Source: an uncultured Candidatus Saccharibacteria bacterium
GTDB lineage: Bacteria > Patescibacteriota > Minisyncoccia > GWC2-36-17 > CAYHJU01
Assembly: GCA_964357175.1 (NCBI GenBank)
Contig: CAYHJU010000004.1
Coordinates: forward strand, 1 to 38,131
Direction: 5' to 3'
DNA length: 38,131 nucleotides
Under the pieces are notes generated by a model that saw only the letters and a list, made by a program, of their open reading frames with translations, ran no database searches and had not been told where the DNA came from. Every line of letters starts with the position of its first letter. Position 1 is the first letter of the stretch. Below, in pieces: positions 6,004 to 27,067 of the stretch. The position numbers were made by a program, and so were the translations under genes.

Positions 6004-6088
6004 CGCCTCCTTTTCAAAGTTCTCTATCTCCACCGCATCGCGCAGAAGAGATTACAAAAAATGTATCACGATTTGTTTAACAGGTCAA
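6004..6088 (-). promoter_or_regulatory. Conserved ~85-bp leader, copy 1 (promoter, hairpin, boxA-like, SD)
   Basis: TTGACC-17-(TGa)TACATT, ATCTC...GAGAT hairpin, GAACTTTGAAAAGGAGG. Confidence 0.85.
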
Positions 6089-6144
6089 GGCTTTATATTT
6101 TCTAAACCGTTGTTATAATGATAAAGAACAAAATTTTTTAAAAT

Positions 6145-7383
6145 ATGTCTTCTAAAAAATATTTAATCATCGTTTTGGGTGGATTGATCCTAATCTCGGT
6201 TTTGGGAACAGGGTTTTTTTGGGGAGGGTACAAATATGGTCTGAGCAAACTTCCTTCGTCTGAATCTGTCACAAGTGTCGCTAATAAAAACGTTGGTCAG
6301 GTTTCGGGCGTCGATTTCAGCCTGTTTTGGGATACCTGGAAAGATGTGCAGGAAAAATATGTTGGCCGAAAAAATTTAGATGCCCAAAAAATGGTTTACG
6401 GGGCGATCTCGGGCATGGTGAATTCTTTGGGCGATCCTTACTCGGTATTTTTAGAACCACAAAAGGCTAAAAAATTTATGGAAGACGTGCAGGGCAGTTT
6501 TGATGGCATAGGTGCGGAAATAGGTCTTCGTAACGGATTTATAACCGTAGTAAAGCCGCTTGCGGGTTCTCCCGCTGTGCGTGCCGGACTTAAAAGCGGA
6601 GATAAAATTTTGAAAATTGACGGCAAGGACGCAACGACTCTTTCTTTAGATGAGGCGATATCTATGATTCGAGGACCCAAGGGCACGATCGTTACTTTAA
6701 CAGTATTGTCATTAACCGATACAAAGCCCAAGGAAATAAAAATAACGAGAGACACCATAAGCGTTCCGATTTTAACTTATGAAATCACCAAAGATAATTT
6801 TTTGAAAGCGAGCTTAACTGAATTTAGTGAAGATGCTGGCACGAAATTTAATCAAATGGTGCGCCAGCTTTCTGGCAAAGAAGTTAAGGGAATGATTTTA
6901 GATTTGAGAAGCAATCCGGGGGGATATTTAGAGGTTTCGCAGGATATAGCCAGCTATTTTATTCCGGAAGGTCAAACAATAGTGGTGGAAGATTTTGGAA
7001 ATGGTCAGGCAAATAAAACCTATCGCAGTTTTGGATATAAAACTTTTGAAAATATGCCCATGGTCGTTTTGGTGGACGAGGGATCGGCTTCAGCTTCTGA
7101 AATTTTAGCAGGAGCATTGAGAGATAATAGAGGAATTAGTTTGGTGGGTAAAAAAACTTTCGGCAAGGGTTCGGTGCAGGAATTAAATGATTTACCGGGC
7201 GGATCGAAACTAAAAGTTACTATTGCCAGATGGCTTACGCCCAAGGGTTATTCTATCGCTGAAAACGGACTTGAGCCGGACATAAAAGTAGAATTAACCG
7301 AAGAAGATGTCACTGCCGGCAAAGATCCGCAAATGGACAGGGCGATTGAAGTTTTGAAACAAGCAGCCAATGTTAGTAAGTAG
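6145..7383 (+). CDS. ctpA: Carboxyl-terminal processing protease (S41A, PDZ)
   Basis: GDPYS, GIGAEI PDZ, LDLRSNPGG, SASASEI, TFGKGSVQ. Confidence 0.95.
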   Translation: MSSKKYLIIVLGGLILISVLGTGFFWGGYKYGLSKLPSSESVTSVANKNVGQVSGVDFSLFWDTWKDVQEKYVGRKNLDAQKMVYGAISGMVNSLGDPYSVFLEPQKAKKFMEDVQGSFDGIGAEIGLRNGFITVVKPLAGSPAVRAGLKSGDKILKIDGKDATTLSLDEAISMIRGPKGTIVTLTVLSLTDTKPKEIKITRDTISVPILTYEITKDNFLKASLTEFSEDAGTKFNQMVRQLSGKEVKGMILDLRSNPGGYLEVSQDIASYFIPEGQTIVVEDFGNGQANKTYRSFGYKTFENMPMVVLVDEGSASASEILAGALRDNRGISLVGKKTFGKGSVQELNDLPGGSKLKVTIARWLTPKGYSIAENGLEPDIKVELTEEDVTAGKDPQMDRAIEVLKQAANVSK

Positions 7384-7420
7384 AAAGTAGAAAATAGTAA
7401 GTAGAAGTTAAACAAAAAAC

Positions 7421-7864
7421 ATGAAAGTTATTTTACTACAATCAATAAAAGATTTGGGGCAAAAAGGGGATGTTAAAGAAGTAAAAGAAGGATACGGAAG
7501 AAACTTTTTGCTGGCACGAGGCTTGGCCGTTTTAGCTACGCAAGGAGCAGTTTCATCTCGCCAGTCAGAATTAAAAAATTTAGCTGAACATGAAGCAAAA
7601 CTCAAAAAAGACGCCGAAATTTTAAAACAAAAAATTGAAGCGGCACCGCTTTTAGCGCACGTTTCTACCAATGAACAGGGAGTGGTCTTTGGATCAATTA
7701 ACGTCAAAGACATAGCTGACCTTTTGAAAGAAAAGGGAATTGCAGTAGACAAGACGCAACTTGAAATAAAATCTCCTATTAAAAAAATAGGAGAAACTAT
7801 TGTGAAAATTAATCTTTACAAAAACATTAAGGCGGATCTCAAACTAAAGGTAGAGTCCAAGTAA
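7421..7864 (+). CDS. rplI: 50S ribosomal protein bL9
   Basis: MKVILLQ..LG..GDV.EVK.GYGRNFLL; FGSI; PIKKIG. Confidence 0.97.
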   Translation: MKVILLQSIKDLGQKGDVKEVKEGYGRNFLLARGLAVLATQGAVSSRQSELKNLAEHEAKLKKDAEILKQKIEAAPLLAHVSTNEQGVVFGSINVKDIADLLKEKGIAVDKTQLEIKSPIKKIGETIVKINLYKNIKADLKLKVESK

Positions 7865-7873
7865 TAAATAAAA

Positions 7874-7911
7874 CATCCCGCCCTTTTGGTTTCTACCAAA
7901 AGGGCGGGATG
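7874..7911. repeat. CCCGCCCTTTTGG hairpin, copy 2 (probable terminator between convergent rplI and rpmA)
   Basis: CATCCCGCCCTTTTGG-loop-CCAAAAGGGCGGGATG. Confidence 0.85.
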
Positions 7912-7927
7912 ATGTCATAAGATTATT

Positions 7928-8200
7928 TTAAATCACATTGACAACTTTAAAAGTTTTGCGAGAATTATCAAAGCGGACACGTGTTTTTTTAGTAAACTTT
8001 ATAGTGCCATCTTTTCCGGCATATAGAGTATCGTCGCCTCCTTTGCGGACATTTTTTCCGGCTAACCATTTACTGCCGCGCTGTCTTACTAAGACCATGC
8101 CCGCTCTGGCTTTTTCTCCGTCAAATAATTTTATTCCTAAGCGCTTGGATTCTGATTCTCGTCCCAAGCGCGTAGTAGAACCTGCTTTTGTGTGAGCCAT
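7928..8200 (-). CDS. rpmA: 50S ribosomal protein bL27
   Basis: [24 protein letters not shown]...VRQRG...DDTL. Confidence 0.98.
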
Positions 8201-8239
8201 AATTTAATATAGAAAATTCAATTAATATCAACTTGTGGA

Positions 8240-8629
8240 ATGATAAAACATTTTGTATCAAAAATCAAGACATTTGTAAATGAGCGCAGAAAAATGCTTC
8301 TCATGGCCCTTTTTGTGTTTATGATATCTTTAATCAGTTTTGGATTAGGCAGACTAAGCATAGTGGCTCAGCCGGAGTCTTTGGTGATAGAAAACGGTGT
8401 TCCGACGCTTAGCGATGTTGAAAAAATAATGACTACAGGTGGTGCGCAGAGCATTGGTTTGCCCACAGCGCAAAACGGAAATTTTGTCGCCAGTAAAAAT
8501 AGTACATATTACTATCTGCCTACCTGCGCCACAGTCAAAAGAATAAAAGATGAAAATAAAGTTTGGTTTCAAACCGAGCAGGAGGCGCAAAGTTTAGGAT
8601 TTACAAGAGGATCGGGGTGTTTTAAGTAA
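8240..8629 (+). CDS. Membrane-anchored protein with Ada metal-binding-like C-terminal domain
   Basis: TM ending SFGLGRLS; FVASKNSTYYYLPTC...IKDENKVWF...A...G...C. Confidence 0.75.
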   Translation: MIKHFVSKIKTFVNERRKMLLMALFVFMISLISFGLGRLSIVAQPESLVIENGVPTLSDVEKIMTTGGAQSIGLPTAQNGNFVASKNSTYYYLPTCATVKRIKDENKVWFQTEQEAQSLGFTRGSGCFK

Positions 8630-8641
8630 ACTTTCTTCTTT

Positions 8642-8943
8642 TAAACGCTTTTTATCTCTCAGATGCTTGCTCAGATAAAATGACTTTTTTATGATTTTAT
8701 TCGAAAAGACTCTCAATTTCCCCAGCGTGGAAATTTCGCTTCGCTTCTTCCCTCGCTCCTAATATTAAAATCCACCAAATTGGTGGATTTTAATATTAGA
8801 CCCTGCTCGCTCGGTCGAAGAGACTTTTCTTTATAAAATCATGGGGATAATAACTAACGAATAATAATAAAATAAATTCGTTGCGCAAATGTTCGATAAA
8901 AAGCGTTTAGGGGATGTATGGTTTTTCAAAACAACAGTCGCGC
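8642..8943. mobile_element. Nested inverted-repeat (MITE-like) element
   Basis: 15-bp IR 8642-8656/8895-8909, inner IRs, central palindrome 8759-8799; 26-bp exact match (8918-8943) to 28419-28444. Confidence 0.6.
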
Positions 8944-9003
8944 TTATTTGTTTTGTTTTTTAATAAAATCCTAAATATAAAATTAAATACAATTTTAAAT
9001 AAT

Positions 9004-9031
9004 AAAAAACCCGCTCCAGTTTTGGAGCGGG
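9004..9031 (-). terminator. Terminator of the 9065-9256 gene
   Basis: CCCGCTCCA/TGGAGCGGG stem followed by a U-tract on the minus strand. Confidence 0.8.
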
Positions 9032-9064
9032 CACTTCTTTTAAAGAAGTGACACCAAAAAATAT

Positions 9065-9256
9065 TTACTTTGCAAAAGACAACTTTAGAATTTTCGCCCT
9101 GTGAGCGTCGTGGATAGCGACAAATACAAAATACAAAGCAATAATCAGCGAGAGTGTCATAATGTTATAAATATGTAGTTTGTACGCCACCCCGCCAAGA
9201 AAACAAAAGACAAAAGATATCAGCAAACTCAAAAATAGTTTTGCTGTGTTCAACAT
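9065..9256 (-). CDS. Small membrane protein (63 aa, 2 TM; orphan unit)
   Basis: ATG at 9256, 6 nt after GGAGG; two hydrophobic helices; conserved leader and terminator. Confidence 0.7.
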   Translation of the reverse strand: MLNTAKLFLSLLISFVFCFLGGVAYKLHIYNIMTLSLIIALYFVFVAIHDAHRAKILKLSFAK

Positions 9257-9260
9257 GCGA

Positions 9261-9345
9261 CGCCTCCTTTTCAAAGATCTTTATCTTTTCTGCACCATGC
9301 AGAAGAGACTACAAAAAATGTATCACGACTCGTTTAAAAAGTCAA
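9261..9345 (-). promoter_or_regulatory. Conserved ~85-bp leader, copy 2
   Basis: TTGACT-17-(TGa)TACATT, TCTCTTCTGCA-TGG-TGCAGAAAAGA hairpin, GATCTTTGAAAAGGAGG. Confidence 0.88.
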
Positions 9346-9444
9346 ACGCCCCATAAGTGGTATTAATTTTCTAAATCCATTATAATTAAGCTATAATTTA
9401 TAACCTCGCTCCGCCGGCTGGCGGATAGTGAGCTAGAAAAAAAT

Positions 9445-10041
9445 ATGCAAGAAAAACCATTACCGTTTAGTAAAGACTTGGATGGCATCTCTAAAAAAAC
9501 CATAGAGATTCACCATGACAAGCTTTATGTGGGTTATGTAAATAAGTCTAATGAAATAGCTGAAAAATTATCAGTTATTTCCAAGCAGGAAAAAATAGAA
9601 GGCAATGCCACCTATTCAGAATTGCGCGCCTTAAAGGACGCGGAGACGTTTGCTAATAACGGAGTTTATTTGCACGAAGATTATTTCGGCTCCTTAGGAG
9701 GAGACGGAAAGTTGGATGCCACCGGCACTCTGTCTAAGGCCTTGGTAGAAAAATGGGGAAGCGTGGAGCAATTTGTAAAATATTTTTCTGCTTGCGCGAT
9801 GTGCAGCCGCGGTTGGACGATACTGACTTGGGATGTGCGCCAGAAAAAATTGAGAATATTCAATGGAGACGTTCACAATCAAGGCGGGGTGTGGGGTGCT
9901 CTGCCAGTTTTAGCCCTGGATGTATATGAGCATGCGTATTTTATAGATTATGGATCTGATAGAAAATCTTACATCGAAAGTTATTTCAAGAATTTGAATT
10001 GGAAATTTGCGCAGGACGCGTTTGAAAGCTATACTAAATAA
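9445..10041 (+). CDS. Fe/Mn superoxide dismutase
   Basis: IHHDKLY, LHE, LDVYEHAYFIDY metal ligands. Confidence 0.95.
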   Translation: MQEKPLPFSKDLDGISKKTIEIHHDKLYVGYVNKSNEIAEKLSVISKQEKIEGNATYSELRALKDAETFANNGVYLHEDYFGSLGGDGKLDATGTLSKALVEKWGSVEQFVKYFSACAMCSRGWTILTWDVRQKKLRIFNGDVHNQGGVWGALPVLALDVYEHAYFIDYGSDRKSYIESYFKNLNWKFAQDAFESYTK

Positions 10042-10068
10042 GTAAAATTTAAAAAGAAAATTTATTTT

Positions 10069-10731
10069 ATGGATCAAAAAGAAAATAAATGGGTTATGCC
10101 GTTAGCGATTGTGGCCGCTGGACTATTGATTGCCGGAGCCGTGATTTATAGCAACAAAAATTCGTCAAACGGAGACCCTACGGTAAGCGACAATCCGCTC
10201 AAGAGAATATCTATTTTGGGTGACGCAAAGGCGCCGGTGAGTTTAGTGGTTTATTCGGATTTTCAGTGTCCATTTTGCAAGAAATGGCACGATGAAACTG
10301 CCCAGCAAATAATAGATGAATATGTAAAAACAGGAAAAGTTAAAATAGAATACAAAGAATTTGCGTTTTTGGGACAAGAATCTATAAATGCTGCCTTGGC
10401 TGTAAAATGTGCCAATGACCAGGGCGTAGAAAGCTATCTGGATTATCACGATTATTTATTTGATAATCAAAAAGGCGAAAATCAGGGACAATTTTCGATA
10501 AATAATCTAAAAAGATTTGCCGAAAATTTAAAATTAGATGTCGATAAATTTAATAGCTGTTTAGATTCAAAAAAGTATAAAGATGAGGTTCAAAAAGAAA
10601 CAGGGGAAGGTAGGGCGGCAGGTGTCACGGGCACGCCATCATCTTTGATCAACGGACAATTAATTGTGGGAGCTCAGCCGTTTGATGTTTTTAAGAAGGC
10701 GATAGATGACGCGCTTAAATCAAGCAAATAA
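10069..10731 (+). CDS. DsbA-family thiol-disulfide oxidoreductase
   Basis: N-terminal TM, SDFQCPFC, GVTGTP cis-Pro, GAQP. Confidence 0.93.
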   Translation: MDQKENKWVMPLAIVAAGLLIAGAVIYSNKNSSNGDPTVSDNPLKRISILGDAKAPVSLVVYSDFQCPFCKKWHDETAQQIIDEYVKTGKVKIEYKEFAFLGQESINAALAVKCANDQGVESYLDYHDYLFDNQKGENQGQFSINNLKRFAENLKLDVDKFNSCLDSKKYKDEVQKETGEGRAAGVTGTPSSLINGQLIVGAQPFDVFKKAIDDALKSSK

Positions 10732-10753
10732 TTTTTTAAGGTTGTGATTTTGT

Positions 10754-10796
10754 AACACCCCGCCCTTTTGGTTTTTCGCCAAAAGGGCGGGGTGTT
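10754..10796. repeat. CCCGCCCTTTTGG hairpin, copy 3 (probable terminator)
   Basis: AACACCCCGCCCTTTTGG-loop-CCAAAAGGGCGGGGTGTT followed by T-run. Confidence 0.85.
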
Positions 10797-10831
10797 TTGT
10801 TTCATTTCAAAATTAAGTTATAATAAATCTA

Positions 10832-11593
10832 ATGGAACAATCGAACAGCCAAAAAATATTAAAAGTAAAAAATCTAACAGTCGTCTTTGACGACAATGTT
10901 GTCATTGATAATTTGAATTTTGAGGTAGAAAAAGGAGAAATGTTGAGCATCATTGGCCCTAATGGGGCCGGCAAAACTGTTTTAGTGCGGGCGCTTTTAG
11001 GTTTAGTAAATTTTACTGGATCTGTGGAATGGAAAAAAAATATTAAAATAGGGTATGTGCCACAGCGCTTCTTTGTCGAAAATGATATGCCTTTGACGGT
11101 TGAAGAATTTTTTAAGTTTAAAACTAATAAGCATGCTCAAATACACAGGGCCTTAGAGCAGGTAGGTTGGCAAGGAGGTTCAAGTCCGGAACATTTCGAA
11201 CACCATCTTAAAAGCCATCTTTTAAATCAACAGTTGGGCAAACTGTCTGGCGGACAATTGCAAAGAATTTTAATTGCTTGGTCACTGATTGATAATCCAG
11301 ACATTCTGCTTTATGACGAACCAACGTCTGGTATTGACGCGGGCGCGGAAGAAACCATTTATTCGACACTTCTTAATTTAAAAGATAAATCTGGGATGAC
11401 TATTATATTCGTTTCACATGAATTGAGCGTAGTTTATAATTATGCCACTAAAGTCATGTGTTTAAATAAAGAAAAATTTTGTTACGGCGAGCCAGAGGAC
11501 ATATTGGGCGCGGAAAGTCTATCTAAACTCTACGGAGAAAAAATGAAATTTTATTCACACCAACACTTGCAAAATAATTCTTATGATAAATAA
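10832..11593 (+). CDS. Zn/Mn ABC transporter ATPase (ZnuC-like)
   Basis: GPNGAGKT, IGYVPQ, LSGGQLQR, DEPTSGID, His-rich C-terminus. Confidence 0.92.
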   Translation: MEQSNSQKILKVKNLTVVFDDNVVIDNLNFEVEKGEMLSIIGPNGAGKTVLVRALLGLVNFTGSVEWKKNIKIGYVPQRFFVENDMPLTVEEFFKFKTNKHAQIHRALEQVGWQGGSSPEHFEHHLKSHLLNQQLGKLSGGQLQRILIAWSLIDNPDILLYDEPTSGIDAGAEETIYSTLLNLKDKSGMTIIFVSHELSVVYNYATKVMCLNKEKFCYGEPEDILGAESLSKLYGEKMKFYSHQHLQNNSYDK

Positions 11594-12386
11594 TTTAATC
11601 TCTTCATTTTCTCAAAATGCGCCTCTGTGGCTTCTCATGTCCACGGGCGTGGTGGTTGGTGTATCGGCAGGATATATCGGAACTTTTTTGATTTTACGCC
11701 GCATGGCTTTATCTGGCGACGCCTTGACACACGTTGCCTTGCCCGGCATGGGATTGGCATTGCTTTTGGGGCTAAATGCTTTTTGGGGAGCGTGGGTGTT
11801 TTTGATTTTGGCCGCTTTGGGCATTTGGTGGATAAAACGCAAAACTCATCTTTATCCGGAAACTTTGGCCGGCATATTTTTTACTTTTAGTTTGGCATTG
11901 GGTATTTTGATAATTCCCAAAATAGATTTATTGGAAGCGCTTTTTGGCGATATAGAAAATCTTACTGTGTTCAATAGCTCCCTGGCTATTTTTCTGGGTG
12001 TAGCGTCTATAATCATCCTAACCATCTATAGAAAACGCTTGATGCTTCTTACTATATCAGAAGATTTAGCAAAAACTATAAATATAAATGCCTCAAGGCT
12101 TGATCTTTTATTTTTAATACTTTTGGGAGTAATAGTGGCGCTGGGCGTTCAGGTCACAGGAACGCTCTTGATGGGCGCCTTGGTAATAATACCAGCCGCT
12201 TCAGCTCAAAACATTGCTCGTTCTTTTTCCGGGTATTGTTTTTGGAGCATCGTCTTTGGAGCGTTGAGCACGATTTTTGCCTTGCCTATTGCTCATTTTT
12301 TTAAATTAACTCCCGGGCCCATTGTGGTTTTGTCGGCGTCTTTATTCTTCGTCATTTCTTTGATATTTTATCGTTTCAGAAAATAA
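11583..12386 (+). CDS. Zn/Mn ABC transporter permease (ZnuB-like, ABC-3)
   Basis: RRMALSGDALTHVALPG, LFGDI, IPAASA, GPIVV. Confidence 0.92.
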   Translation: MINNLISSFSQNAPLWLLMSTGVVVGVSAGYIGTFLILRRMALSGDALTHVALPGMGLALLLGLNAFWGAWVFLILAALGIWWIKRKTHLYPETLAGIFFTFSLALGILIIPKIDLLEALFGDIENLTVFNSSLAIFLGVASIIILTIYRKRLMLLTISEDLAKTININASRLDLLFLILLGVIVALGVQVTGTLLMGALVIIPAASAQNIARSFSGYCFWSIVFGALSTIFALPIAHFFKLTPGPIVVLSASLFFVISLIFYRFRK

Positions 12387-12536
12387 TTTACCCCGTTAAA
12401 TAATTTTAAATTTTATATAAAATTTAAAATTAAAATTTGTCATTTTGGTCACTACAATCATGCTTAAAATTCAACCAAATTGATTTAATGATATTTTTTG
12501 TAAAATATATAAACAAATTTTATTTAACAGGGTGAA
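12387..12536. mobile_element. MITE-like element (ACCCYGTTAAAT family), long AT-rich variant
   Basis: Ends TTTACCCCGTTAAATA ... TATTTAACAGGGTGAA match the 60-bp elements at 26535 and 34457. Confidence 0.65.
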
Positions 12537-12537
12537 T

Positions 12538-13179
12538 ATGGAGAAAATTAAACTTTTTTCGGAAGATGGCCTTAATTTAGTCGGCAATTATTCCTCTTCA
12601 AAAGGTAGCGCAAAAGGAGCGTTGCTTTTGCATATGTACCAACGCTCAAAAGAGGACTGGAAAGATTTCGCCGAAATGATCGCTCAAAGGGGATATAAGG
12701 TATTGGCGATGGATTTAAGGGGTCATGGTGAAAGCGATGGCGATATACAGAAAATATTTTCACAAGACCTAAACTTAATTATTTTAAAAGATGTGGAGCT
12801 TGCGATGGATTTTTTAAAAAAAGATGGCGCGCAAAGCATTTTTATAATCGGCGCGAGCATTGGCGCAAACGCCGCTTTAATTTACGGCGCGAAGCACAAT
12901 GTGGCGGGTATAGCCTTATTGTCTCCTGGACTGGATTATCATGGCGCAAACATTGAGGTGCCGATGAAAAATTATTCGCGCCCAATATTTTTAGCCGCTT
13001 CAGAAGACGACTCTTATTCTACAGAAACTGTTAAAAAAATTTATGATTTCTCGTCCGTGCCCAAAGATAAAAAAGTTTTGATTTTATACAAAAACGCTGG
13101 CCACGGCACTCAGATGTTCGGCAAAGAAAATCCAGATTTATCAGAAAAACTCACTGAATGGTTGGAAAGTATTAATTAA
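12538..13179 (+). CDS. Alpha/beta hydrolase
   Basis: LLHM, DLRGHGES, GASIG nucleophile elbow, Asp (EDD), GHG. Confidence 0.9.
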   Translation: MEKIKLFSEDGLNLVGNYSSSKGSAKGALLLHMYQRSKEDWKDFAEMIAQRGYKVLAMDLRGHGESDGDIQKIFSQDLNLIILKDVELAMDFLKKDGAQSIFIIGASIGANAALIYGAKHNVAGIALLSPGLDYHGANIEVPMKNYSRPIFLAASEDDSYSTETVKKIYDFSSVPKDKKVLILYKNAGHGTQMFGKENPDLSEKLTEWLESIN

Positions 13180-13180
13180 A

Positions 13181-17976: not shown

Positions 17977-18795
17977 GTGCAGACACCGGAACCCTGGAGA
18001 ATTGATAAAGAAGACGTGTGTTACAGAATTATTACAGGGTGGTCCCTAAAGACTTTTGATGAATGGCTTGTCAAAACCTCTGAAAAATATGGTTTAAGCA
18101 AAGAAGATTTGCTTTTGGGTATTGCCGAAACTATTCGAAAAATATCCCATCGAACAATTGAAATTCTTGAATGGCAAACTAAAATCAGAAATAAGGTTCA
18201 AATTCCGCCCTTTATTATCACTCTTAAATTGAAAAGTTATGATGCGGCCATTTCTGCTCAGTTAAAAAATGGTCGGAGTCTTGATGATTTGTGTGATAAA
18301 AAAGAATTTCTTTCAGCTCTTGGGACATTTGGTCAAATTGCCATGGAGATTGCGGGCATCAGAGAGCTTTGCAGGTTTATTGGTGAAAATGTTAGGGTTA
18401 ATGGAGTGGCGTCTGAATTTCTAATCATTTATAATCAATTTTTGGTTCAGGGAGCATTTGAAGAATTTCTAAAAACCTTTCCAAATTCACAATCTTCCGA
18501 AAATTCTTTAGAGCTATCTAGATCCAGCAAAGAGCATTTAATTAAAGTTGTGGCTGAAGAAACTATGCATTACTTTGATTATCAGACCAATCCCCAGCTG
18601 ATGGATGATTTGTTTAAGAGGGTCAGAGAAAAAACCGGAGACACCAAAGATCCTGAAAAATTAGTAGATGCAGAACAAGAAGTAGAAGTGGAGCTTGGGC
18701 TCAAAGATCGAGCCGAACAGATTTTTTTGATTTTGAAAGACGGCACAGATCTATTTCTTCCCTTGGAAATGAGGCTTTCTTGGGTCTTCCCTTGA
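17977..18795 (+). CDS. Hypothetical protein (orphan unit; EExxH motif)
   Basis: 272 aa; TTGATA-18-TACAAT promoter; leader GCACATTTAAAAAGGAG then GTG. Confidence 0.75.
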   Translation: MQTPEPWRIDKEDVCYRIITGWSLKTFDEWLVKTSEKYGLSKEDLLLGIAETIRKISHRTIEILEWQTKIRNKVQIPPFIITLKLKSYDAAISAQLKNGRSLDDLCDKKEFLSALGTFGQIAMEIAGIRELCRFIGENVRVNGVASEFLIIYNQFLVQGAFEEFLKTFPNSQSSENSLELSRSSKEHLIKVVAEETMHYFDYQTNPQLMDDLFKRVREKTGDTKDPEKLVDAEQEVEVELGLKDRAEQIFLILKDGTDLFLPLEMRLSWVFP

Positions 18796-18811: not shown

Positions 18812-18840
18812 AAACCCTCCGCTGAAAACGGGGGGTTTTT
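18812..18840. terminator. Bidirectional terminator between convergent orphan units
   Basis: AAACCCTCCG-loop-CGGGGGGTTTTT. Confidence 0.8.
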
Positions 18841-18858: not shown

Positions 18859-19086
18859 TTAAGATCTTGATTTTACAGGTTGATCGTAATCGATACACAT
18901 AAAACCGCCATTAAATCTATTGCTACGAGCTCGTAGGACAATCGTCTTGCCTTCTTTGGTCAAAATATAGTTTTCGCCGGCGTCCAAATTTCTATATTCA
19001 ATAGTTTCGGCACCTGCAAATTTAGCCAATTCTTTCAGCTGTCTTTTGTGCGTTTCACTTGTAGCTCCAATAATAACGGGATCCAT
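18859..19086 (-). CDS. Hypothetical protein (second gene of a unit)
   Basis: 75 aa; starts immediately after the upstream stop; AAGGA SD-like inside the upstream gene. Confidence 0.65.
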   Translation of the reverse strand: MDPVIIGATSETHKRQLKELAKFAGAETIEYRNLDAGENYILTKEGKTIVLRARSNRFNGGFMCIDYDQPVKSRS

Positions 19087-19425
19087 TTAGTTGGCCGTTC
19101 CTTCTGAGATTTTTTTCTCAGAAACGATTATCCAGCTCTGTTCTGCCCATTTGTCACTCACCTCGATTTTTTTGCCTGACTTGTCGTGCCACTGTAGGCC
19201 GACATCTTTGGCATGAACTAAACTCCAGGCTCCCAGAGATGTTAGTTTTTCTAAAAGTTTTGTTTCCTGGGGACGTGAATAGGGAAGATCTTTTTCTTTA
19301 TATAGCGCCGCTATGAACTGTGTGCGGTTTCCAATGATGCCCAGTTCAACATGTACCACCATTCCTTCGGGAACATTGGTTGCGATAAGAAGAGTTTTCT
19401 GCGTGCTGGGTTCATCCAAGGGCAA
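19087..19425 (-). CDS. Hypothetical protein (orphan unit)
   Basis: TTG at 19425, 6 nt after GGAGG; conserved leader upstream. Confidence 0.7.
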   Translation of the reverse strand: MPLDEPSTQKTLLIATNVPEGMVVHVELGIIGNRTQFIAALYKEKDLPYSRPQETKLLEKLTSLGAWSLVHAKDVGLQWHDKSGKKIEVSDKWAEQSWIIVSEKKISEGTAN

Positions 19426-19430: not shown

Positions 19431-19514
19431 ACCTCCTTTTCAAGGTTCTTTATCTCTTCTGTACCACGCAGAAGAGATTGTAAATAATGTATCACAACTC
19501 GTTTTAAAAGTCAA
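19431..19514 (-). promoter_or_regulatory. Conserved ~85-bp leader, copy 3
   Basis: TTGACT-17-(TGa)TACATT, perfect 10-bp stem ATCTCTTCTG/CAGAAGAGAT, GAACCTTGAAAAGGAGG. Confidence 0.88.
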
Positions 19515-19893: not shown

Positions 19894-20039
19894 GGCTATA
19901 TCGAAAATTAGCTACTTCTCTATTAATATTGCCACAAATTACAATTTAAAACAACTGTTATAGAATAACTTTGCTTTTTGATGGATAAAAGCGCAGAATC
20001 TATCTATAATAGTATAATAATCAAATAATAAACATATAT

Positions 20040-20564: not shown

Positions 20565-20653
20565 GGCGTTATAAGACCATGCTTAAACCGCTAACTATTA
20601 TTTTGGAAAAGAAAAACCGGCCCTTTTGAGCCGGTTTTATTTTTTAACTAAAA

Positions 20654-21811
20654 TTATATTTTATGTACCAAAACCGATAAAATCATGCCCAACATTGACC
20701 AGTCAACGCTTGCTTGTTTGCAAATCTCACCCAGTTTCATAATTTCAACATAGGTTCGTTCAGTGTCTTCTACGACTCCGTGAGCAATGCCTTGCTGAGA
20801 ACGAAGCCAATCCAATTCTTGGTCAGTAATTTCTACCGAGAACAGATGGGCTTTGTGAGCTGATAGAGTGGCAACTAATTGACGAGCTTCATGCTTTTTA
20901 ATTCTGCTTGATTCAATCTTTAGTCCGGTTTCTTCCTCGCATTCATTGGCGGCAAGCACCAAGGGGTCTCCTTTGGGCTTAAAAGATGAACCACCAGGCA
21001 CTTCCCAAACATACCCATCAGAAGTTGTTACGGGACTGCGGAATTCACGAATTAAAACAATGTCCGTGTTATATAAATCCGCTTTCTTTTGATACATAAC
21101 AATGGTAGCTATGTCTGGCCTGGAAATTACTACTTCGTTAGTTTTATTTCGATTTTCTTTGGTAATATAAACATTAACGTGCAAAATCCAAAAGAAAACA
21201 AAACCTCTTTTTGGACCCACGCGAAATGTCCACTCTACTTTTGCTCCGTCTAAACGATTGCCCGCTGATTTTTGAGCTTGATACCAATTTTGAAAATGTG
21301 ACGTTCGCCAAATATATAACGGGACATCTCTTTCGCCGCCAGTTCTCAAAGCTCCTTCGCCGATCATCTCTAAAGCGTTTTTAATCGTTTCTTCTAAAGT
21401 GTTGGCAATGGGCACTTGAAATTTGCAAGCATAATATTCTTGATAACGAATATTTATGGCCTCATAGGGTGCTCCAAAAACGACTTTGCCGCTATTTTGC
21501 CAAACGCCCCATTCTGTATTAGTTGTTAGAGCAGGCATGGTCTTCATGTTTCGTGGAACCCAAAAAACAATACAATCAGACATATGAAGACATTTTTCTT
21601 CCCATTCTACTTGATTATTATAATCAAATCGTTGCTTCTTATTTGAGCGTTCTGGATTAAAAACAACTCCGTCATACCCAAGTTTTTTAAGAATTTTAAG
21701 CGCTTCAGGGCGCCATGAAGATGTTTTCTTTGAACGTGGAGTAGGACCAGCCAAAAAAATTGCCTTACTAAAACTTTCGGGTAATTCTTCTCCCGCGTAA
21801 ATAACTCTCAT
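20654..21811 (-). CDS. Nucleoside 2-deoxyribosyltransferase-like domain fused to a NUDIX hydrolase
   Basis: N-term IFLAGPTPR..SWR..QVEWE..DCIVFW..TTNTEWG; C-term REFRSP..WEVPGG..ANECEEETG; ATG at 21811 after AAGGAG; terminator 20612-20638. Confidence 0.8.
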   Translation of the reverse strand: MRVIYAGEELPESFSKAIFLAGPTPRSKKTSSWRPEALKILKKLGYDGVVFNPERSNKKQRFDYNNQVEWEEKCLHMSDCIVFWVPRNMKTMPALTTNTEWGVWQNSGKVVFGAPYEAINIRYQEYYACKFQVPIANTLEETIKNALEMIGEGALRTGGERDVPLYIWRTSHFQNWYQAQKSAGNRLDGAKVEWTFRVGPKRGFVFFWILHVNVYITKENRNKTNEVVISRPDIATIVMYQKKADLYNTDIVLIREFRSPVTTSDGYVWEVPGGSSFKPKGDPLVLAANECEEETGLKIESSRIKKHEARQLVATLSAHKAHLFSVEITDQELDWLRSQQGIAHGVVEDTERTYVEIMKLGEICKQASVDWSMLGMILSVLVHKI

Positions 21812-21931
21812 GGATTTCTCCTTTTTAAAGATCAAAAACTTACCTAAAGCATAGGTTTGTTTTTATTTTTTGTAAAGATATTGTTTTAGAAATTAAAAAA
21901 GAAAAACCCCGACTTTGTGTCGGGGGTATTT

Positions 21932-22270
21932 TTATTTAGTATCGTATTTTTCCAAAATCGTTATGAACGGGAAACGCTTAACGCTGTAAGCGTATCCGCG
22001 CAGGATATCCCTTGTCCCGCGATACTCCTCATCATAACCGAGATTAAAAGAAGCACGATTGGCCCACCACCAGTAGCGAAACCCTTCGGTTTCAACAAAG
22101 CTTCGCCACTCCTCGGGGTTGAATTGGACTAGCATTGCGCTAAATCCATGCCCGGCTGTTGTAATAGCGACTCGTTGCGGGCGAAGGTCAATTTTGGGCA
22201 CAAAAACCCATGGTGGGGTTAAGCGTGTTTGTTCTGGGACTGAGCCACTTTTTGAATCCATCTTTGTCAA
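21932..22270 (-). CDS. Hypothetical protein, possibly frameshifted near the N-terminus
   Basis: 112-aa ORF with terminator 21902-21927; the SD-positioned ATG at 22277 is out of frame. Confidence 0.55.
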   Translation of the reverse strand: MTKMDSKSGSVPEQTRLTPPWVFVPKIDLRPQRVAITTAGHGFSAMLVQFNPEEWRSFVETEGFRYWWWANRASFNLGYDEEYRGTRDILRGYAYSVKRFPFITILEKYDTK

Positions 22271-22530
22271 ATCGCATTTCCGCGTCCTTTCTTTTCAAAG
22301 AACTCAACTTGTCTAAAGCTTAGGTTTATTTTTGTATTTTGTAAAGATATTCGCGGGGTCGTGTTGTGAGGGATCCGTCCAAGACGGACAAGTGTTACTG
22401 TGTCCGTCCTAGTCCGAAGGAGGAGAAATATTTTAGAGGGGGGAGAGTAAGAAAAAAGAGACACACGAGTGTCTCTTTTTGGAGATTTGATCCCATCTGT
22501 TAAAGAGGGGATAATTTTTAACTTCGTAGA

Positions 22531-23142
22531 TTATAGGGCTAAGGAGTAGATTTTTTTGGCACCATCCAATCTAAAGCCCATTCTTCTGGCTGTAACGTCA
22601 TATTTCATATACAAATGTTGTTTCTTTTCGGGGCATGCAGAATACCACACGCTATCTCTGCTTCTTATGATGTTAATTTGTTTTATGCTATGGAATTTGG
22701 CCCAATCCAAAACAATTTGTACAAGCATTTTTTCCCAGCGAAATGGACAAAGCTCGGTATTTTTATTTTTGACGCCCTGAATTTGCCTTATAACACATCT
22801 AGAGTCATTTTCTTCTAGATCGAACCCGATGCTACAGATAGGTTTATTATTTTTAAACAAAACAAAATTATAGTTAGCGTCAAAATAAATAGAATGAAAG
22901 TTGCCACACCCCCAACCTTCGCCATAATATAAATAAATTTTAAACGAATTTGAAGTTAGTTTATCAGTAAAATTTTTCTTTAGAAATTTTTTTAAATAAT
23001 CAACCAGATCAATTCTTCCATAGGGTCCTCCACTGATCATGTTTCTGAACAATTCTGGCGCATCGTCTAATTTTTTGGGATTGACACTTAATTTTCTACC
23101 AAAAAATTCTAAAAATTTTGCCAGGAGGCTTTTTTTGAGCAA
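22531..23142 (-). CDS. Hypothetical protein, possibly VirK/YbjX (DUF535)-like
   Basis: CSIGF..IRQIQGV..W..YD..ARRMGF pattern; GAGGAG SD, TTG start, TTGACA promoter; terminator 22452-22480. Confidence 0.55.
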   Translation of the reverse strand: MLKKSLLAKFLEFFGRKLSVNPKKLDDAPELFRNMISGGPYGRIDLVDYLKKFLKKNFTDKLTSNSFKIYLYYGEGWGCGNFHSIYFDANYNFVLFKNNKPICSIGFDLEENDSRCVIRQIQGVKNKNTELCPFRWEKMLVQIVLDWAKFHSIKQINIIRSRDSVWYSACPEKKQHLYMKYDVTARRMGFRLDGAKKIYSLAL

Positions 23143-23386
23143 GGCTTTTACTCCTCTGCGTTACTGTAAAAGGGCTAAATGATTAATATCACATTTAGTA
23201 ACACGTTGTCAATACTTTGCCTGGGAATTTTAATTTTTTGGCAGGCTGTTGTTTTGGAAAAGAGCCAAATCAAAAAGCCAGCATTCTCTGGCTTTTTGTG
23301 GGCATTTCCCGGACCGTTGATGTTAGAACTTTTTTGGAATACGCTGTTATTCGATATTCAGGCTATTAATACTCTATACCAGCTTG

Positions 23387-23767
23387 TTACTTAAGAGCAT
23401 CCACAGTTGCGGAAACAGCACGATCCATAAAAAAAATACTTGCCCTTGAAGCCGCGCTTCCCCCTTCTTTTATATCATTGAAATTGCTCTGAAGCTCATT
23501 GTCGGCAGTTGCTTTTGTGGCTTCTGTGAGTGATAAAATCCAATCTGTCTCAGAAAATGGTTGCCTAGTTGGTAGACCGGCCTGTTTTCGAGCAGGCTCT
23601 AAAAGCAAATCTAGGGCTTTAGCGTAAGTTAAGCCCTTATCAATTTTATTTTGCAAAGCCTCTTTTTCACTGCCCAATTTGATCTTTCCTTGCTGTAAAG
23701 ACCATGCCCAGCCAACACTAGCTAGCAATAGAACTACCAATACTACAACAATAATATTTTTGTTCAT
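23387..23767 (-). CDS. Hypothetical exported/membrane-anchored protein
   Basis: 126 aa, hydrophobic N-terminus; hairpin 23272-23297 downstream. Confidence 0.7.
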   Translation of the reverse strand: MNKNIIVVVLVVLLLASVGWAWSLQQGKIKLGSEKEALQNKIDKGLTYAKALDLLLEPARKQAGLPTRQPFSETDWILSLTEATKATADNELQSNFNDIKEGGSAASRASIFFMDRAVSATVDALK

Positions 23768-24055
23768 TTTAAATTATTTATTTATACTTTCTAAAAACTT
23801 GACCTTTTTTATTTCTTTTTTTATTTTAACAAAAAATTGCTTCCTTGGCAATCGAATCATGAGATAGAGCAAATTAAAACCAGGCCTTCTCGGATCTCTC
23901 ACTAAATGGGGTCGCATCGTGAAGGATGTTAGAAATATTTTAGAGAGGGAAGAAGAGAAAAAGATGCACAAGATACTTGACTATTTTTCAACCACATGGT
24001 AAATATGTAATAGCTGTTTTACAACTAAACGGGGAGTCAAATAAGGAGGTTACGG

Positions 24056-24805
24056 ATGCGGATAATCAGGGCTCTGTATAAAATCTTTTTATTTATTGTT
24101 CTTTTAGAAGTGGTGCTTGCGATCCATGAATATGGTCATTTGCGTGAATTTCAAAAAAAGCACGTTCCTATCCAGGAGTTTTCTTTGGGGGTGGGGCCAG
24201 TTGTGTACCAGAATCAAATGAATTCTTTTATTTTTAGTGTAAGGCTTATTCCTTTAGCGGCATATGTGGCGGCAGAGGACGGTGAAGCGTATAGCAAATT
24301 ATCCGCATGGGATAAAATCATCATATACATGGCGGGCATAAGAAATAATATTTTATCCGCTGTAATTTTTGTATTTTTCTTCCAGATCCTTGGATGGAAA
24401 AGAGATAATTTGTCTTCTCGAGAACTTGTTAAAACAATAGCTATAACGCCAGTAAAGATCGTGGCAAGATTTTTCTACTTGTTGTTTGGCTGTATAACTT
24501 TTGGATTCATAAAACCACCGAGCTGGATTCTTGTCTCGACTGGAAAAATTCACCCACCAAAACTAATTAGAGAATTTATGTTTTTTAGTTTGGTGTTGGG
24601 GCTTTTCAATTTGGCGCCAATCTCTATGCTGGACGGCGGCCAAATAGCCAAAACTGTAATTCAGTCAATGGGTTATGGCGAATATTTAGCAATGATTCCT
24701 CAGTTTGTGTCCTCTCTTGTTTTAATGTTTCTTATTATCATCGCAAACGTCTGTTTGGACTTGAGACTTTTTGAATTTGATCTCAAGCAGGAAAAAACTT
24801 TGTAG
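24056..24805 (+). CDS. Site-2 (M50) intramembrane metalloprotease without PDZ
   Basis: HEYGH, FSLGVGP, AGIRNN, FNLAPISMLDGG; TAAGGAGG SD; terminator 24830-24855. Confidence 0.88.
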   Translation: MRIIRALYKIFLFIVLLEVVLAIHEYGHLREFQKKHVPIQEFSLGVGPVVYQNQMNSFIFSVRLIPLAAYVAAEDGEAYSKLSAWDKIIIYMAGIRNNILSAVIFVFFFQILGWKRDNLSSRELVKTIAITPVKIVARFFYLLFGCITFGFIKPPSWILVSTGKIHPPKLIREFMFFSLVLGLFNLAPISMLDGGQIAKTVIQSMGYGEYLAMIPQFVSSLVLMFLIIIANVCLDLRLFEFDLKQEKTL

Positions 24806-24968
24806 AATATATGTAAAAAGACATGTAACAACACCCCCAATATGGGGTGTTTTTATTTGGTGTTAATTATTAACAAATTGGATGCCAAAGCTATTTAACG
24901 ATTACGAACCGCAACAAATGCTGATGAATAAAGGAAAAAGTGCCGTTTTTGACAGCGCTTCTCCTGTT

Positions 24969-25044
24969 TGGGGTGGATGATGGGATTCGAACCCACAACC
25001 GCCAGAGCCACAATCTGGTGCTCTACCATTGAGCTACACCCACC
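24969..25044 (-). tRNA. tRNA-His (GTG)
   Basis: Cloverleaf with G-1, anticodon arm CCAGA-TTGTGGC-TCTGG, GGTTCGAATCC, encoded CCA. Confidence 0.96.
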
Positions 25045-25122
25045 AATTTTTTACATGTTCATTATACCATTTTTAAGGTGATAAAATAACTTTCATACAT
25101 TTTAGAATCTAGAATATAATAA

Positions 25123-25225
25123 CAATTTTCAATTTCCAATTCTCAATTTTCAATGAATTTTCAATGATTTAATTTTTAATTTAAAACTTTAATTTTTAAC
25201 TTTTCACTTTTAATTTTAAATTTTC
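25123..25225. repeat. Degenerate 6-7-nt tandem repeats (AATTTTC / TTTAAT)
   Basis: aattttc aatttcc aattctc aattttc aatg... followed by tttaat-type units. Confidence 0.55.
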
Positions 25226-25265
25226 TTCTACTTTCTATTTACTATTTTCTAAATTCTTTCGGGGA

Positions 25266-26303
25266 TTACTCTTCTTGAAAAGCGCTTATTATATCATCTA
25301 AATTTCCATCCATTATGTTGGCAATATTATGCCAGCTTTTTTGTATGCGGTGATCGGTGATGCGGTCCTGTGGAAAATTATATGTACGAATTTTTTCAGC
25401 TCTCTCGGCAGTGCCTATTTGAGATTTACGCAAACCTTCCTCCGTGCTTCTGCGCTTATCCTCTTCCATTTGATAAAGCTTGGAGCGCAATATCTCCAGC
25501 GCCAATTCTTTGTTGCGAGCTTGAGACCTCTCTGTTTGAGATCTGATGACTATACCTGTGGACGCGTGGATTAAACGCACAGCGGTTTCTACTTTGTTCA
25601 CATTTTGTCCTCCAGGTCCGCCAGAGCGGGTGGTCTCAAATTTGATGTCCTGTGATTTTATGTTTATCTTGGTTTCAGGCACTTTGGGTAAAATAGCGAC
25701 TGAGGCGGTAGAGGTGTGCACGCGGCCGCCTTTTTCTGTCTCGGGTATTCTTTGCACACGATGCACGCCACTCTCTTGTTTTAAAAGATTATAAACATTT
25801 TTGCCCGAAAGTGAAAAAACTATTTCTTTGTATCCGCCAATATCTGTGCGAGAAGAGTCCAATGTTTCAAGTGCGAATCCATTTCTTTCGGCAAAGCGGG
25901 AATACATTCTAAATAGATCTCCGGCAAAAAGCGCCGCCTCTCCACCCCCTGTGCCTGCCCGAATTTCAACGAGGGCGCCATTTATCTGTTCTGCCTTGGT
26001 AGACGTGAGTTCCTTGTATTCTTTTTCAAAGTCCGTGAGATTTTTTAAAAGTTGAGGCAATTCATCTTCTGCCATTTTTTTAAATTCGGATTCGTTTTCT
26101 GAAGACATTATTTTTTTATTTTCCTCTATATTTTTCTCAACGTCTTCAATTTTTTGAATTATAGCGATATGTTTTTGAAGTTCAGAAAATCTAGATGCTA
26201 TATCTTTAGCTTCTTGTGGATGAGCTGAAAAAAGCTCGGGGTCGGCGAGCTTTTTTTCTAAATCCGCGTACTCTTTTTTTATGTCCAAAAAACGCGAATC
26301 CAT
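25266..26303 (-). CDS. prfA: Peptide chain release factor 1
   Basis: [28 protein letters not shown] (PxT), [20 protein letters not shown]. Confidence 0.97.
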
Positions 26304-26313
26304 AAGAAATAAA

Positions 26314-26529
26314 TTATTTTTTACTCTTGGTGGCTTTAGCCGAACGTCTCTTGAATTTCTCTACGCGTCCTGCGCTGTCCATGATTTTTTCTTTTCCTGT
26401 ATAAAAAGGATGGCAGGCGGAGCAAATTTCTACGCGAAGTTCCGCTTTGGCAGAACCTACTTTAAATTTATTTCCGCAAGCGCATACCACGTCCGCTTCT
26501 TGGTATTGAGGATGTATTTTTGGTTTCAT
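26314..26529 (-). CDS. rpmE: 50S ribosomal protein bL31 (Zn-binding type)
   Basis: [29 protein letters not shown]. Confidence 0.98.
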
Positions 26530-26534
26530 ATCTT

Positions 26535-26594
26535 TTTACCCTGTTAAATGCCCTTTGGGCAATCCCACTTTGTGGGATTATTTAACGGGGTGAA
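26535..26594 (-). mobile_element. 60-bp MITE-like element (ACCCYGTTAAAT family)
   Basis: Reverse complement matches 34457-34516 at 56/60; terminal IRs enclose two small hairpins. Confidence 0.8.
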
Positions 26595-26701
26595 TTATTT
26601 TTTTAAATTAGACTGAATTCTATAAGATACTAACATAAATATATTTTTGTGGCAAGGAGCGGGCGGGCCTTACTATTATTTTGGAAAAGAAAAACCCGCT
26701 T

Positions 26702-26977
26702 CTAGGCGGGTGTCATTTTGAAATTTCTGCAAGTAAATTTTGCAAAAATAGAGCGGGAGTTTTTGTTTATCCAGATATATTTGATTTCTGGCTTTGTTTT
26801 TGAACATTGATGTATGATAGCCTCAATAAGAGAAATTGTCTGACCGGGCTCAATGATTTTATAATCATCTTCATTTTCGTCTTCAACCTTACAAATTTTA
26901 ATATCGGCTTCCGGAAAGCCGCTTTGGTAAACGATGTACTTTCCTGGGCTCAAGCCGCACTTCCTGAGAAGGGTCAT
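26702..26977 (-). CDS. Hypothetical protein (orphan unit)
   Basis: 91 aa; AAGGAG SD; conserved leader; stop codon lies in the terminator loop (26688-26711). Confidence 0.7.
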   Translation of the reverse strand: MTLLRKCGLSPGKYIVYQSGFPEADIKICKVEDENEDDYKIIEPGQTISLIEAIIHQCSKTKPEIKYIWINKNSRSIFAKFTCRNFKMTPA

Positions 26978-26983
26978 ATGCAG

Positions 26984-27067
26984 ACTCCTTTTTCAAGGTT
27001 CTTTATCTCTTCTACACCGTGTGGAAGAGATTGTGATTAATCTATCACGACTTGTTCAAAAGGTCAA
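26984..27067 (-). promoter_or_regulatory. Conserved ~85-bp leader, copy 4
   Basis: TTGACC-17-(TGa)TAGATT, ATCTCTTC..GAAGAGAT hairpin, GAACCTTGAAAAAGGAG. Confidence 0.88.

Follow-up and report, generated by a model that had tools for sequence, protein, structure and literature searches.

Introduction

Upstream sequences that recur in closely similar form in one genome have been described as putative mobile promoters (PMPs) by Matus-Garcia, Nijveen and van Passel (2012), as told in a commentary (PMC3575422). By the criteria that the commentary relates, two upstream regions of one genome, taken from −150 to −50 relative to the start codon, must be identical at 80% or more of the positions over a length of 50 nt or more. 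Here we describe an element of a comparable kind, a module of about 85 bp with a predicted promoter, a hairpin, a boxA-like motif and a Shine–Dalgarno (SD) sequence, which stands in four copies before unrelated open reading frames (ORFs) on contig CAYHJU010000004.1 of an uncultured Candidatus Saccharibacteria bacterium (assembly GCA_964357175.1). The window, as the stretch of DNA analyzed is called below, is this whole contig of 38,131 bp; the genome has 757,863 bp in 30 contigs, a G+C content of 39% and a completeness score of 100%.

Other described systems bear on parts of this module. In a setting with RNases J and Y but lacking RNase E/G, a 5′ stem-loop together with ribosome binding stabilizes messages. 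The aprE leader, with its stem-loop and ribosome binding, is said to be a 5′ mRNA stabilizer of the Bacillus-type decay systems, and the STAB-SD of cryIIIA is reportedly another 5′ stabilizer. The best-known job of boxA is to block Rho termination. In one study, the boxA consensus of gamma-proteobacteria is given as GYTCTTTAANA, the boxA of Escherichia coli suhB, which lies 6 nt from the SD, is reported to repress translation via the Nus complex, and a survey of boxA counts 0–7 genes per genome (Baniulyte et al. 2017, PMC5725501). Phage morons are defined in a further article as independent units with their own promoter and terminator (PMC3594210).

We consider it fairly probable that the four leaders form a family of putative mobile promoters, that is, a duplicated promoter-leader module in which a hairpin-then-boxA build like that of rRNA operon (rrn) leaders is fused to a strong SD; this estimate includes the working and the spread that we propose for the module. 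The leader is known from this lineage only, and the known kinds that it extends are promoter reuse and boxA-bearing mRNA leaders.

Results and discussion

Four paralogous leaders stand before non-paralogous genes

The four sequences are homologous to one another and are paralogous copies of one promoter-plus-5′-leader module. The initial annotation had reported them on the minus strand at 6004–6088, 9261–9345, 19431–19514 and 26984–27067, and all four were found there. The features of the four cassettes are as follows.

6004–6088, minus strand: leader copy 1, with the −35 element at 6083–6088, the −10 element with TG at 6060–6065, the hairpin at 6026–6052, the boxA-like motif at 6011–6022 and GGAG at 6007–6010
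5513–6001, minus strand: ORF of 162 amino acids (aa) behind copy 1; a conserved uncharacterized family, mostly of Patescibacteria, with no Pfam or PHROG match
5485–5504, minus strand: intrinsic-terminator-like hairpin at the end of cassette 1
9261–9345, minus strand: leader copy 2, with the −35 element at 9340–9345, the −10 element at 9317–9322, the hairpin at 9283–9309, the boxA-like motif at 9268–9279 and GGAG at 9264–9267
9065–9256, minus strand: ORF of 63 aa behind copy 2; hydrophobic, with two putative membrane helices by eye and no Pfam or PHROG match
9009–9032, minus strand: terminator-like hairpin at the end of cassette 2
19431–19514, minus strand: leader copy 3, with the −35 element at 19509–19514, the −10 element at 19486–19491, the hairpin at 19452–19478, the boxA-like motif at 19437–19448 and GGAG at 19433–19436
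19087–19425, minus strand: ORF of 112 aa behind copy 3, with a TTG start at 19425; no homolog besides itself
18859–19086, minus strand: ORF of 75 aa, second in cassette 3; the stop of the 112-aa ORF and the start of this one overlap in TAAATG
18812–18838, no single strand: two-way terminator-like hairpin common to cassette 3 and the convergent gene 17977–18795
26984–27067, minus strand: leader copy 4, with the −35 element at 27062–27067, the −10 element at 27039–27044, the hairpin at 27005–27031, the boxA-like motif at 26990–27001 and AGGAG at 26985–26989
26702–26977, minus strand: ORF of 91 aa behind copy 4; two distant homologs
26694–26711, minus strand: terminator-like hairpin at the end of cassette 4, overlapping the stop codon

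The copies align end to end, as had been claimed, over 85 columns with a mean column identity of 87% and 52 invariant columns. An alignment with 40-nt flanks placed the limits of the similarity: conservation falls off directly after GGAG, in agreement with the earlier statement that it stops at the SD, and on the 5′ side it ends a few bases before the −35 element in copies 3 and 4. Copies 1 and 2 share a further ~27 nt upstream of the −35 element, which the initial annotation lacked, so that the module measures ~85 bp in general and ~110 bp in these two. Two degenerate patterns, one built on the −10 element and stem and the other on the stem, boxA and SD, each matched exactly the four sites, and none of 100 shuffles gave a match. 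When the whole genome was searched with nhmmer, the four copies were returned at E = 1e-22 to 2e-24 (copy 4 at 1.2e-22) and the next match at E = 0.0017. Pairwise identities by blastn were 84.4% over 77 nt for copies 1 and 2, 86.7% over 83 nt for copies 2 and 3, and 82.8% over 64 nt for copies 1 and 3; copy 4, the most diverged, matched the others in pieces of 24–29 nt only.

No fifth copy was found in the genome, and none in 60 relatives, which belong to its order or class and where the best match reached E = 0.002 over 27 nt. The leader had no match in a genome-contig collection. A metagenome-contig collection yielded a single match, a 1,080-bp contig at copy 2 that is near-identical to the window and therefore adds no diversity. 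Since this independent contig reproduces copy 2 with its flanks, and since eight DNA runs from two studies contain 67–95% of the sampled words of positions 5400–9400, the leader is not an assembly artefact. Nor did it match a known Rfam family: at gathering thresholds only two tRNAs were detected in the window, both away from the copies, and E-value scans of copies 1 and 3 gave far-sub-threshold noise only.

Like the PMPs, the copies are closely similar upstream sequences of one genome that precede non-paralogous genes and match no known insertion sequence (IS), tRNA or RNA family. By the identity rule three of the six copy pairs pass; copy 4 fails it by blast and is admitted by the profile only. 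The module differs from the PMPs of that account in its placement, running from about −90 to −5 and thereby including the whole 5′ untranslated region and the SD, and in having a defined inner anatomy of hairpin, boxA and SD.

This anatomy is the same in every copy. TTGAC(C/T), a 17-bp spacer and a TG-extended −10 element TA(C/G)ATT had been proposed as the promoter, and a promoter scan indeed lists all four with 9/12 consensus matches. The predicted promoter is of the sigma-70 type. A hairpin with a 10–12-bp stem begins 7–8 nt after the −10 hexamer, near the predicted start site. Four bases past the hairpin comes the 12-mer G(A)(A/T)C(C/T)TTGAAAA, to which GGAG(G) is joined directly, and the start codon follows 6–8 nt further. 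Each cassette thus comprises its own promoter, leader, one or more ORFs and a terminator-like hairpin.

Two side observations concern the upstream edge. On the opposite strand, the extra ~27 bases of copies 1 and 2 (6089–6130 and 9346–9400) contain a TATAAT that would serve the divergent ctpA-type and sod genes, and a plus-strand promoter-like site at 6092–6119 scores 10/12; copies 1 and 2 may thus have arisen by duplication of a promoter region that works in both directions. The 14-nt unit TTAGAATCTAGAAT is tandemly duplicated and followed by the start of a third copy in the spacer toward rplJ, directly upstream of the −35 element of copy 4 (27075–27106, minus strand).

The genes behind the leader are rare and unrelated

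That the downstream proteins are unrelated, as first described, is confirmed by all-against-all blastp, in which the best cross-pair had E = 0.14, and by tblastn, which found no paralog in the genome; the ORFs are thus not diverged paralogs. The earlier proposal of a reusable expression module before unrelated genes agrees with these four homologous leaders and non-paralogous ORFs. One ORF per leader (162, 63, 112 and 91 aa) had been listed, which is correct for copies 1, 2 and 4 and incorrect for copy 3, where the 112-aa ORF is coupled to one of 75 aa. None of the five cassette ORFs has a Pfam or PHROG match.

The 162-aa protein has 31 homologs at E ≤ 1e-31, which form a family of ~155 aa with invariant DHDR, WTG and APN motifs. 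Its confident AlphaFold model (pLDDT 90.3, pTM 0.85) found no fold match in the PDB at E ≤ 0.001. We fetched 17 loci of this family, 16 from genome collections (mostly Patescibacteria) and one from a viral contig. The distribution of the family is patchy: several groups of Patescibacteria have members, yet of 400 other genomes sampled within the organism's own class only 1 does. By eye, the leader is absent from all 17 loci, where the relatives have promoters of their own. Among 1.84 billion representatives the 91-aa protein has only two distant homologs (54% and 46% identity), and for the 112-aa protein no homolog was found other than itself. Given the 17 homologous loci without the leader and the rarity of the other ORFs, the leader did not travel with the genes; its union with these rare and unrelated genes took place in this lineage. 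Different ORFs may have been swapped in behind the leader, as first proposed, or the leader may have been copied in front of the genes, and the module may, as was also suggested, create new genes. The genes behind it are mostly lineage-restricted, small and unrelated.

The cassettes lie between core genes, as had been noted, with neighbors for a sortase, a CtpA-type protease, L9, L27, superoxide dismutase, a DsbA-like protein, L31, RF1, L10 and L7/L12. The remark that no integrase lies nearby also holds: no integrase, transposase or phage domain was detected among the 40 window ORFs scanned with Pfam.

The 12-nt motif is shared with the 16S rRNA leaders of the clade

The 12-nt motif of the four leaders is the motif of the clade's 16S rRNA leaders, and its position and its likeness to the published consensus identify it as a putative boxA. 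The clean, non-circular test of the earlier 'boxA-like' call used a pattern taken from the mRNA leaders only, which was tried on the 16S leaders of relatives. It matched in 5 of 12 relatives, in sense orientation at −77 to −120, with one antisense match and a background of ~0.008 per 300 nt. The 16S leaders of relatives carry GTTCTTTGAAAA, GAACCTTAAAAA, GTACCTTGAAAA, GTTCCTTGAAAA and GTACTTTAAAAA; the genome's own rrn leader, GTACTTTGATAA, stands after a hairpin and is one base off this pattern. Like rrn-operon leaders, the module thus has a hairpin in the boxB position followed by a boxA-type 11–12-mer that recurs in the 16S leaders of the clade, and the boxB–boxA-like architecture noted at the outset is indeed the order of an rrn leader. 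Against the consensus GYTCTTTAANA, which is gamma-proteobacterial only, the four copies match at 7–9 of 11 positions (hand count) and the sister leaders at 10–11.

These sister leaders belong to at least three further families that end in the same boxA-like plus SD signal. Family B (two copies) and family C (three copies) have, in the same place, hairpins that differ from that of the four-copy leader (family A). The fourth family, with four loci, has a TTTACA −35 element, a TATACT-like −10 element and no hairpin before the boxA-like motif and SD. It precedes unrelated genes, namely a PepF-type peptidase gene on another contig, a nucleoside-deoxyribosyltransferase-like gene and a 112-aa ORF at 21932–22270. 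Two of its loci are in the window.

21815–21905, minus strand: fourth leader family, member 1, with the boxA-like motif and GGAG; precedes the nucleoside-deoxyribosyltransferase-like gene
22291–22351, minus strand: fourth leader family, member 2; precedes the ORF at 21932–22270

The boxA-plus-SD third of the module is therefore not special to the four copies, a point that the initial annotation missed. In the whole genome TTGAAAA(A)GGAG occurs 14 times, ~12 of them directly before a start codon (read by hand). A wider 12-mer pattern, drawn up after sight of both the mRNA and the rrn leaders, occurs 46 times against 10.6 ± 3.4 in shuffles. Among 722 genes, which are crude calls from an ad hoc script, 23 carry it in sense orientation in the upstream 60 nt (antisense 1, reversed 0, shuffles 0.41 ± 0.61). 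In 15 of these 23, the SD begins −1 to +3 nt from the end of the motif. GGAG stands upstream of 136 of the 722 genes, and 20 of these 136 have the motif, so that motif and GGAG travel together. The strict gamma-proteobacterial consensus precedes 9 genes in this genome. When the 20 genes behind the motif outside the four cassettes were scanned with Pfam, 9 had a family and 11 had none, and no translation gene was among them; the families were peptidases M3, M50, S41 and M29, a putative aminopeptidase, patatin, a nucleoside-deoxyribosyltransferase-like family and DUF483.

This expansion of the boxA–SD ending is specific to the lineage. We counted the fused 16-mer 8 times in this genome and 10 times in total over the 60 relatives (reversed control, 1). 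For the 12-mer, occurrences and control stand at 46 vs 16 here, at ~1:1 in most relatives and at 36 vs 8 in one other genome. We therefore rejected an expansion throughout the class, given the 16-mer total in the 60 relatives and the control-level 12-mer counts in most of them.

As in the suhB leader, the motif stands beside an mRNA SD, and NusB is encoded here (117 bits, cut-off 23.1). The gap between motif and SD is 0–3 nt here, in contrast to 6 nt in suhB, and the number of genes, ~23 per 758 kb by the clade pattern and 9 by the strict gamma-proteobacterial consensus, exceeds the 0–7 per genome of the survey. Further differences from rrn leaders and Nus target leaders are that the genes here are accessory and peptidase genes and not translation genes, that the boxA here is putative, and that a search of this genome, with its completeness score of 100%, found no Rho RNA-binding domain. 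Since Rho was not found, blocking Rho termination cannot be the role of boxA here, and any Nus-factor action must differ. A literature search, judged by title, returned no paper on boxA in Patescibacteria or the candidate phyla radiation (CPR), only unrelated water-microbiome papers, and nothing that treats the 12-mer together with boxA.

The strongest competing explanation disputes the boxA step only. On this account CYTTGAAAAGGAG would itself be a signal for translation initiation, acting as an enhancer or by folding into a weak hairpin in which CYUU pairs with GGAG or AAGG and hides the SD, and the likeness to rrn leaders would reflect common composition or an unknown factor that binds both. 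In three of the four copies the 5′ half of the motif is predicted to pair with the SD, the motif is mostly fused to the SD, the co-occurrence with GGAG in 20 of 136 genes fits, and so does the missing Rho. Against these points, the same 12-mer is present in rrn leaders without a following SD, and the fold z-scores are modest (−1.0 to −2.7). Two specific versions were tried and rejected. An extended SD is incompatible with the 3′ end of the 16S rRNA (contig C22), GGATCATCTCCTTTCTAGGG, which is complementary to AAAGGAG only, so that CTTTGAAAAGGAG is not a long SD. Enhancer pairing elsewhere in the 16S rRNA came, in the parts available, to a single 8-mer in the 5′ part as the best match, which is at chance level; motif plus SD may also resemble the enhancer of translation in the gene 10 leader of phage T7. 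On balance we hold a signal independent of Nus factors to be possible and rather doubtful.

Some features of the rRNA genes were observed in passing. The 16S 3′ end GGATCATCTCCTTTCT (C22:91–150) has T in the anti-SD where CCTCC has its first C. The 16S gene at C12:23239–24592 is followed by a terminator-like hairpin and by no 23S gene, and the assembly as a whole yielded no 23S gene either. The match to the 16S model has a break from position 546 to position 663 of the model.

The leader hairpin

The predicted hairpin folds in all four copies, with the modest z-scores already given. Stem cells are paired in 44 of 48 cases; a single pair shows a double change, from G-C to A-U, five have changed on one side to G-U, and four are broken. 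The initial annotation had argued that the inner stem keeps pairing, which would fit selection on RNA structure. This covariation argument is not established, since there is one compensatory pair only and 232 of 500 shuffles are as good. The stems of family C add four one-sided G-U changes and one break, and those of family B add one G-U. Pooled over families A, B and C on the sense strand, 10 changes preserve pairing by wobble vs 5 that break it (hand count), with a binomial P of 0.0085 if one third is expected and of 0.15 if one half is expected. The pooled wobble changes hint at pairing at the RNA level.

The host has RNase J (582 bits, cut-off 400), and with it what 5′-end-dependent decay calls for, as well as RNase Y (614 bits, cut-off 454); an RNase E/G domain was not found in the genome. 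The module is like the aprE and STAB-SD stabilizers in having a stem-loop near the predicted 5′ end and then a strong SD, in a host with RNases J and Y where RNase E/G was not found. It is unlike them in that those are single-gene leaders without boxA, whereas here the leader is a multi-copy module with a predicted start site.

The palindrome might alternatively act as DNA. In that case a dimeric repressor would bind ATCTCTTC...GAAGAGAT just past the start site and co-regulate the four cassettes, and the other similarity would be a remnant of duplication. Repressor sites classically overlap the region just downstream of the start, and this palindrome overlaps predicted +1 to +27; its outer arms are almost invariant, while the inner four pairs and the loop vary, and the RNA covariation is not significant. 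An operator of this kind nevertheless seems unlikely to us: 14 of the 16 inner-stem cells remain paired though every column changes (hand count), the hairpins of families B and C are different ones in the same place, arms of 10–12 bp are long for an operator, and the pooled G-U-keeping changes, suggestive only, point to RNA.

Spread of the copies

Dispersed repeats make up 21% of the intergenic bases of this genome vs 2.4% of the coding bases and fall into 89 families, the largest of which, with 112, 25 and 13 loci, are palindromic intergenic repeats. Since short intergenic pieces are reused throughout the genome, short-tract recombination fits the four leaders better than four independent imports. 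One locus allows a comparison between genomes. In 1 of 18 same-order relatives rplJ lies next to rpmE–prfA, divergently and with a spacer of 356 nt; the corresponding spacer in the window is 782 nt long, including the ~380-bp cassette 4, and the two spacers share no sequence. The difference in size is about that of cassette 4, which weakly suggests that cassette 4 is an insertion relative to this one relative.

Independent import would mean that the cassettes, each with promoter, gene and terminator, are moron-like and stem from a single donor, such as a phage or plasmid that has the same early promoter-leader before many genes, and that they were inserted separately between core genes. The likeness to morons, as defined above, lies in the autonomy of these units between genes with other jobs: each cassette is an independent transcription unit with a predicted promoter and terminator. 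The ORFs are rare or orphan, the patchy 162-aa family includes one viral contig, and cassette 4 looks like an insertion beside the one relative. Unlike morons, the cassettes lie in a cellular chromosome between core genes, with no prophage context and no clear compositional deviation, the G+C of their ORFs (0.36–0.45) being within ~1.2 sd of the genome mean of 0.396 ± 0.042. To our knowledge, phage morons are not known for sharing one leader. The four terminators are mutually dissimilar, the five ORFs lack PHROG matches, and the 40 scanned ORFs of the window include no phage, integrase or transposase domain. The leader itself was in no genome or metagenome collection apart from the contig at copy 2, the viral collection having been searched with the 162-aa protein only, and the boxA–SD ending also precedes ordinary chromosomal genes such as those of peptidases. 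We therefore regard an origin of this kind as distinctly unlikely.

A selfish miniature repeat (a miniature inverted-repeat transposable element, a REP-like element or an IS end) that came to lie upstream of genes by accident is hardly credible even in a genome with such large palindromic families, as the four copies form a closed four-member family unlinked to these, have identical orientation and end 2–8 nt ahead of a minus-strand start codon, contain a full promoter and SD, and are palindromic in the internal hairpin only, without inverted repeats at the ends of the unit, with no IS-related or mobile-element RNA family found in Rfam and no transposase domain among the 40 window ORFs scanned.

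Proposed working and significance

Under the explanation that we prefer, a duplicated promoter-leader module of the PMP type, the promoter would give each cassette autonomous transcription, and the hairpin at the predicted 5′ end would, together with strong ribosome binding, shield the message from 5′-end-dependent decay. By analogy with suhB, boxA might be bound by NusB–S10 and so tune translation start or elongation. As for the spread of the copies, short-tract recombination or duplication is the most likely route, as it is for the many other families of intergenic repeats here.

Several points weigh against this explanation. The copies diverge by 13–25%, too much for a recent origin, and neither an intermediate nor an empty site was encountered; the confinement of all four to one strand of a 21-kb stretch is not what simple random dispersal would give. 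The insertion argument for cassette 4 depends on 1 of 18 same-order relatives. The start site, and thus the '5′-terminal' position of the hairpin, is predicted only, and the covariation in the hairpin, over four copies, is not above chance. As for boxA, the A/T-rich motif is partly self-complementary with the SD and could be an SD-masking mini-hairpin or a translation enhancer that works without a Nus factor; Rho, the target of the best-known boxA function, was not found. The wider 12-mer pattern is circular, and only the comparison of the mRNA-only pattern with the relatives' 16S leaders is free of this; the counts over 722 genes come from crude gene calls.

A bolder extension would have a Rho-less, ultra-small bacterium use boxA welded to the SD as a general expression tag for ~3% of its genes, mostly accessory, peptidase and orphan genes, and spread this tag by copying whole promoter–hairpin–boxA–SD modules. 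We offer it tentatively and consider it unlikely. If it were true, NusB and S10 would control a regulon of about two dozen mRNAs, many more than the handful of targets known so far, and the module would be a built-in device that gives acquired or newborn ORFs transcription, stability and translation. Should NusB–S10 read the SD-adjacent boxA, Nus factors would, in a Rho-less lineage, be broad mRNA regulators and not only rRNA specialists. If, on the other hand, the boxA likeness is a translation signal only, what is left is clear and ordinary promoter reuse.

Almost nothing is known about gene control in Patescibacteria, most of which are uncultivable and have small genomes with few regulators. 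The module is a compact, sequence-defined unit that could be tested in a surrogate host, where it would reveal signals for transcription, message life and translation. It also offers a concrete case of how genes acquired horizontally or born de novo may gain expression signals, namely by having a ready-made leader copied in front of them.

Further repeats and a further cassette in the window

Examples of dispersed repeats in the window are found at 1121–1238, 8628–8948, 25079–25257, 28264–28455, 12361–12543 and 4659–4838. A leader-like repeat of ~78 nt, with two small hairpins inside an outer stem CCCCGTTAAA...TTTAACAGGG, lies at 26529–26606 upstream of rpmE (L31) and again at 34447–34525, just before the gene at 34527. 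Similar copies occur on several other contigs, within the 25-locus family, and the repeat had no Rfam match at gathering thresholds. Of the 16 copies that the genome has of a 19-nt hairpin sequence, CTGCCTACCGGCAGGCAGG, one is in the 16S rRNA leader (C12:23294) and one at 4697–4715 (minus strand), upstream of the gene at 3514–4665. Another self-contained minus-strand cassette extends over 2940–3401 and upstream to ~3490; it has TTGACT, a spacing of 17 nt and a TG-extended TAGTAT, a leader with GTTCTTTAATTT, an ORF of 153 aa without a Pfam family, and a strong terminator.

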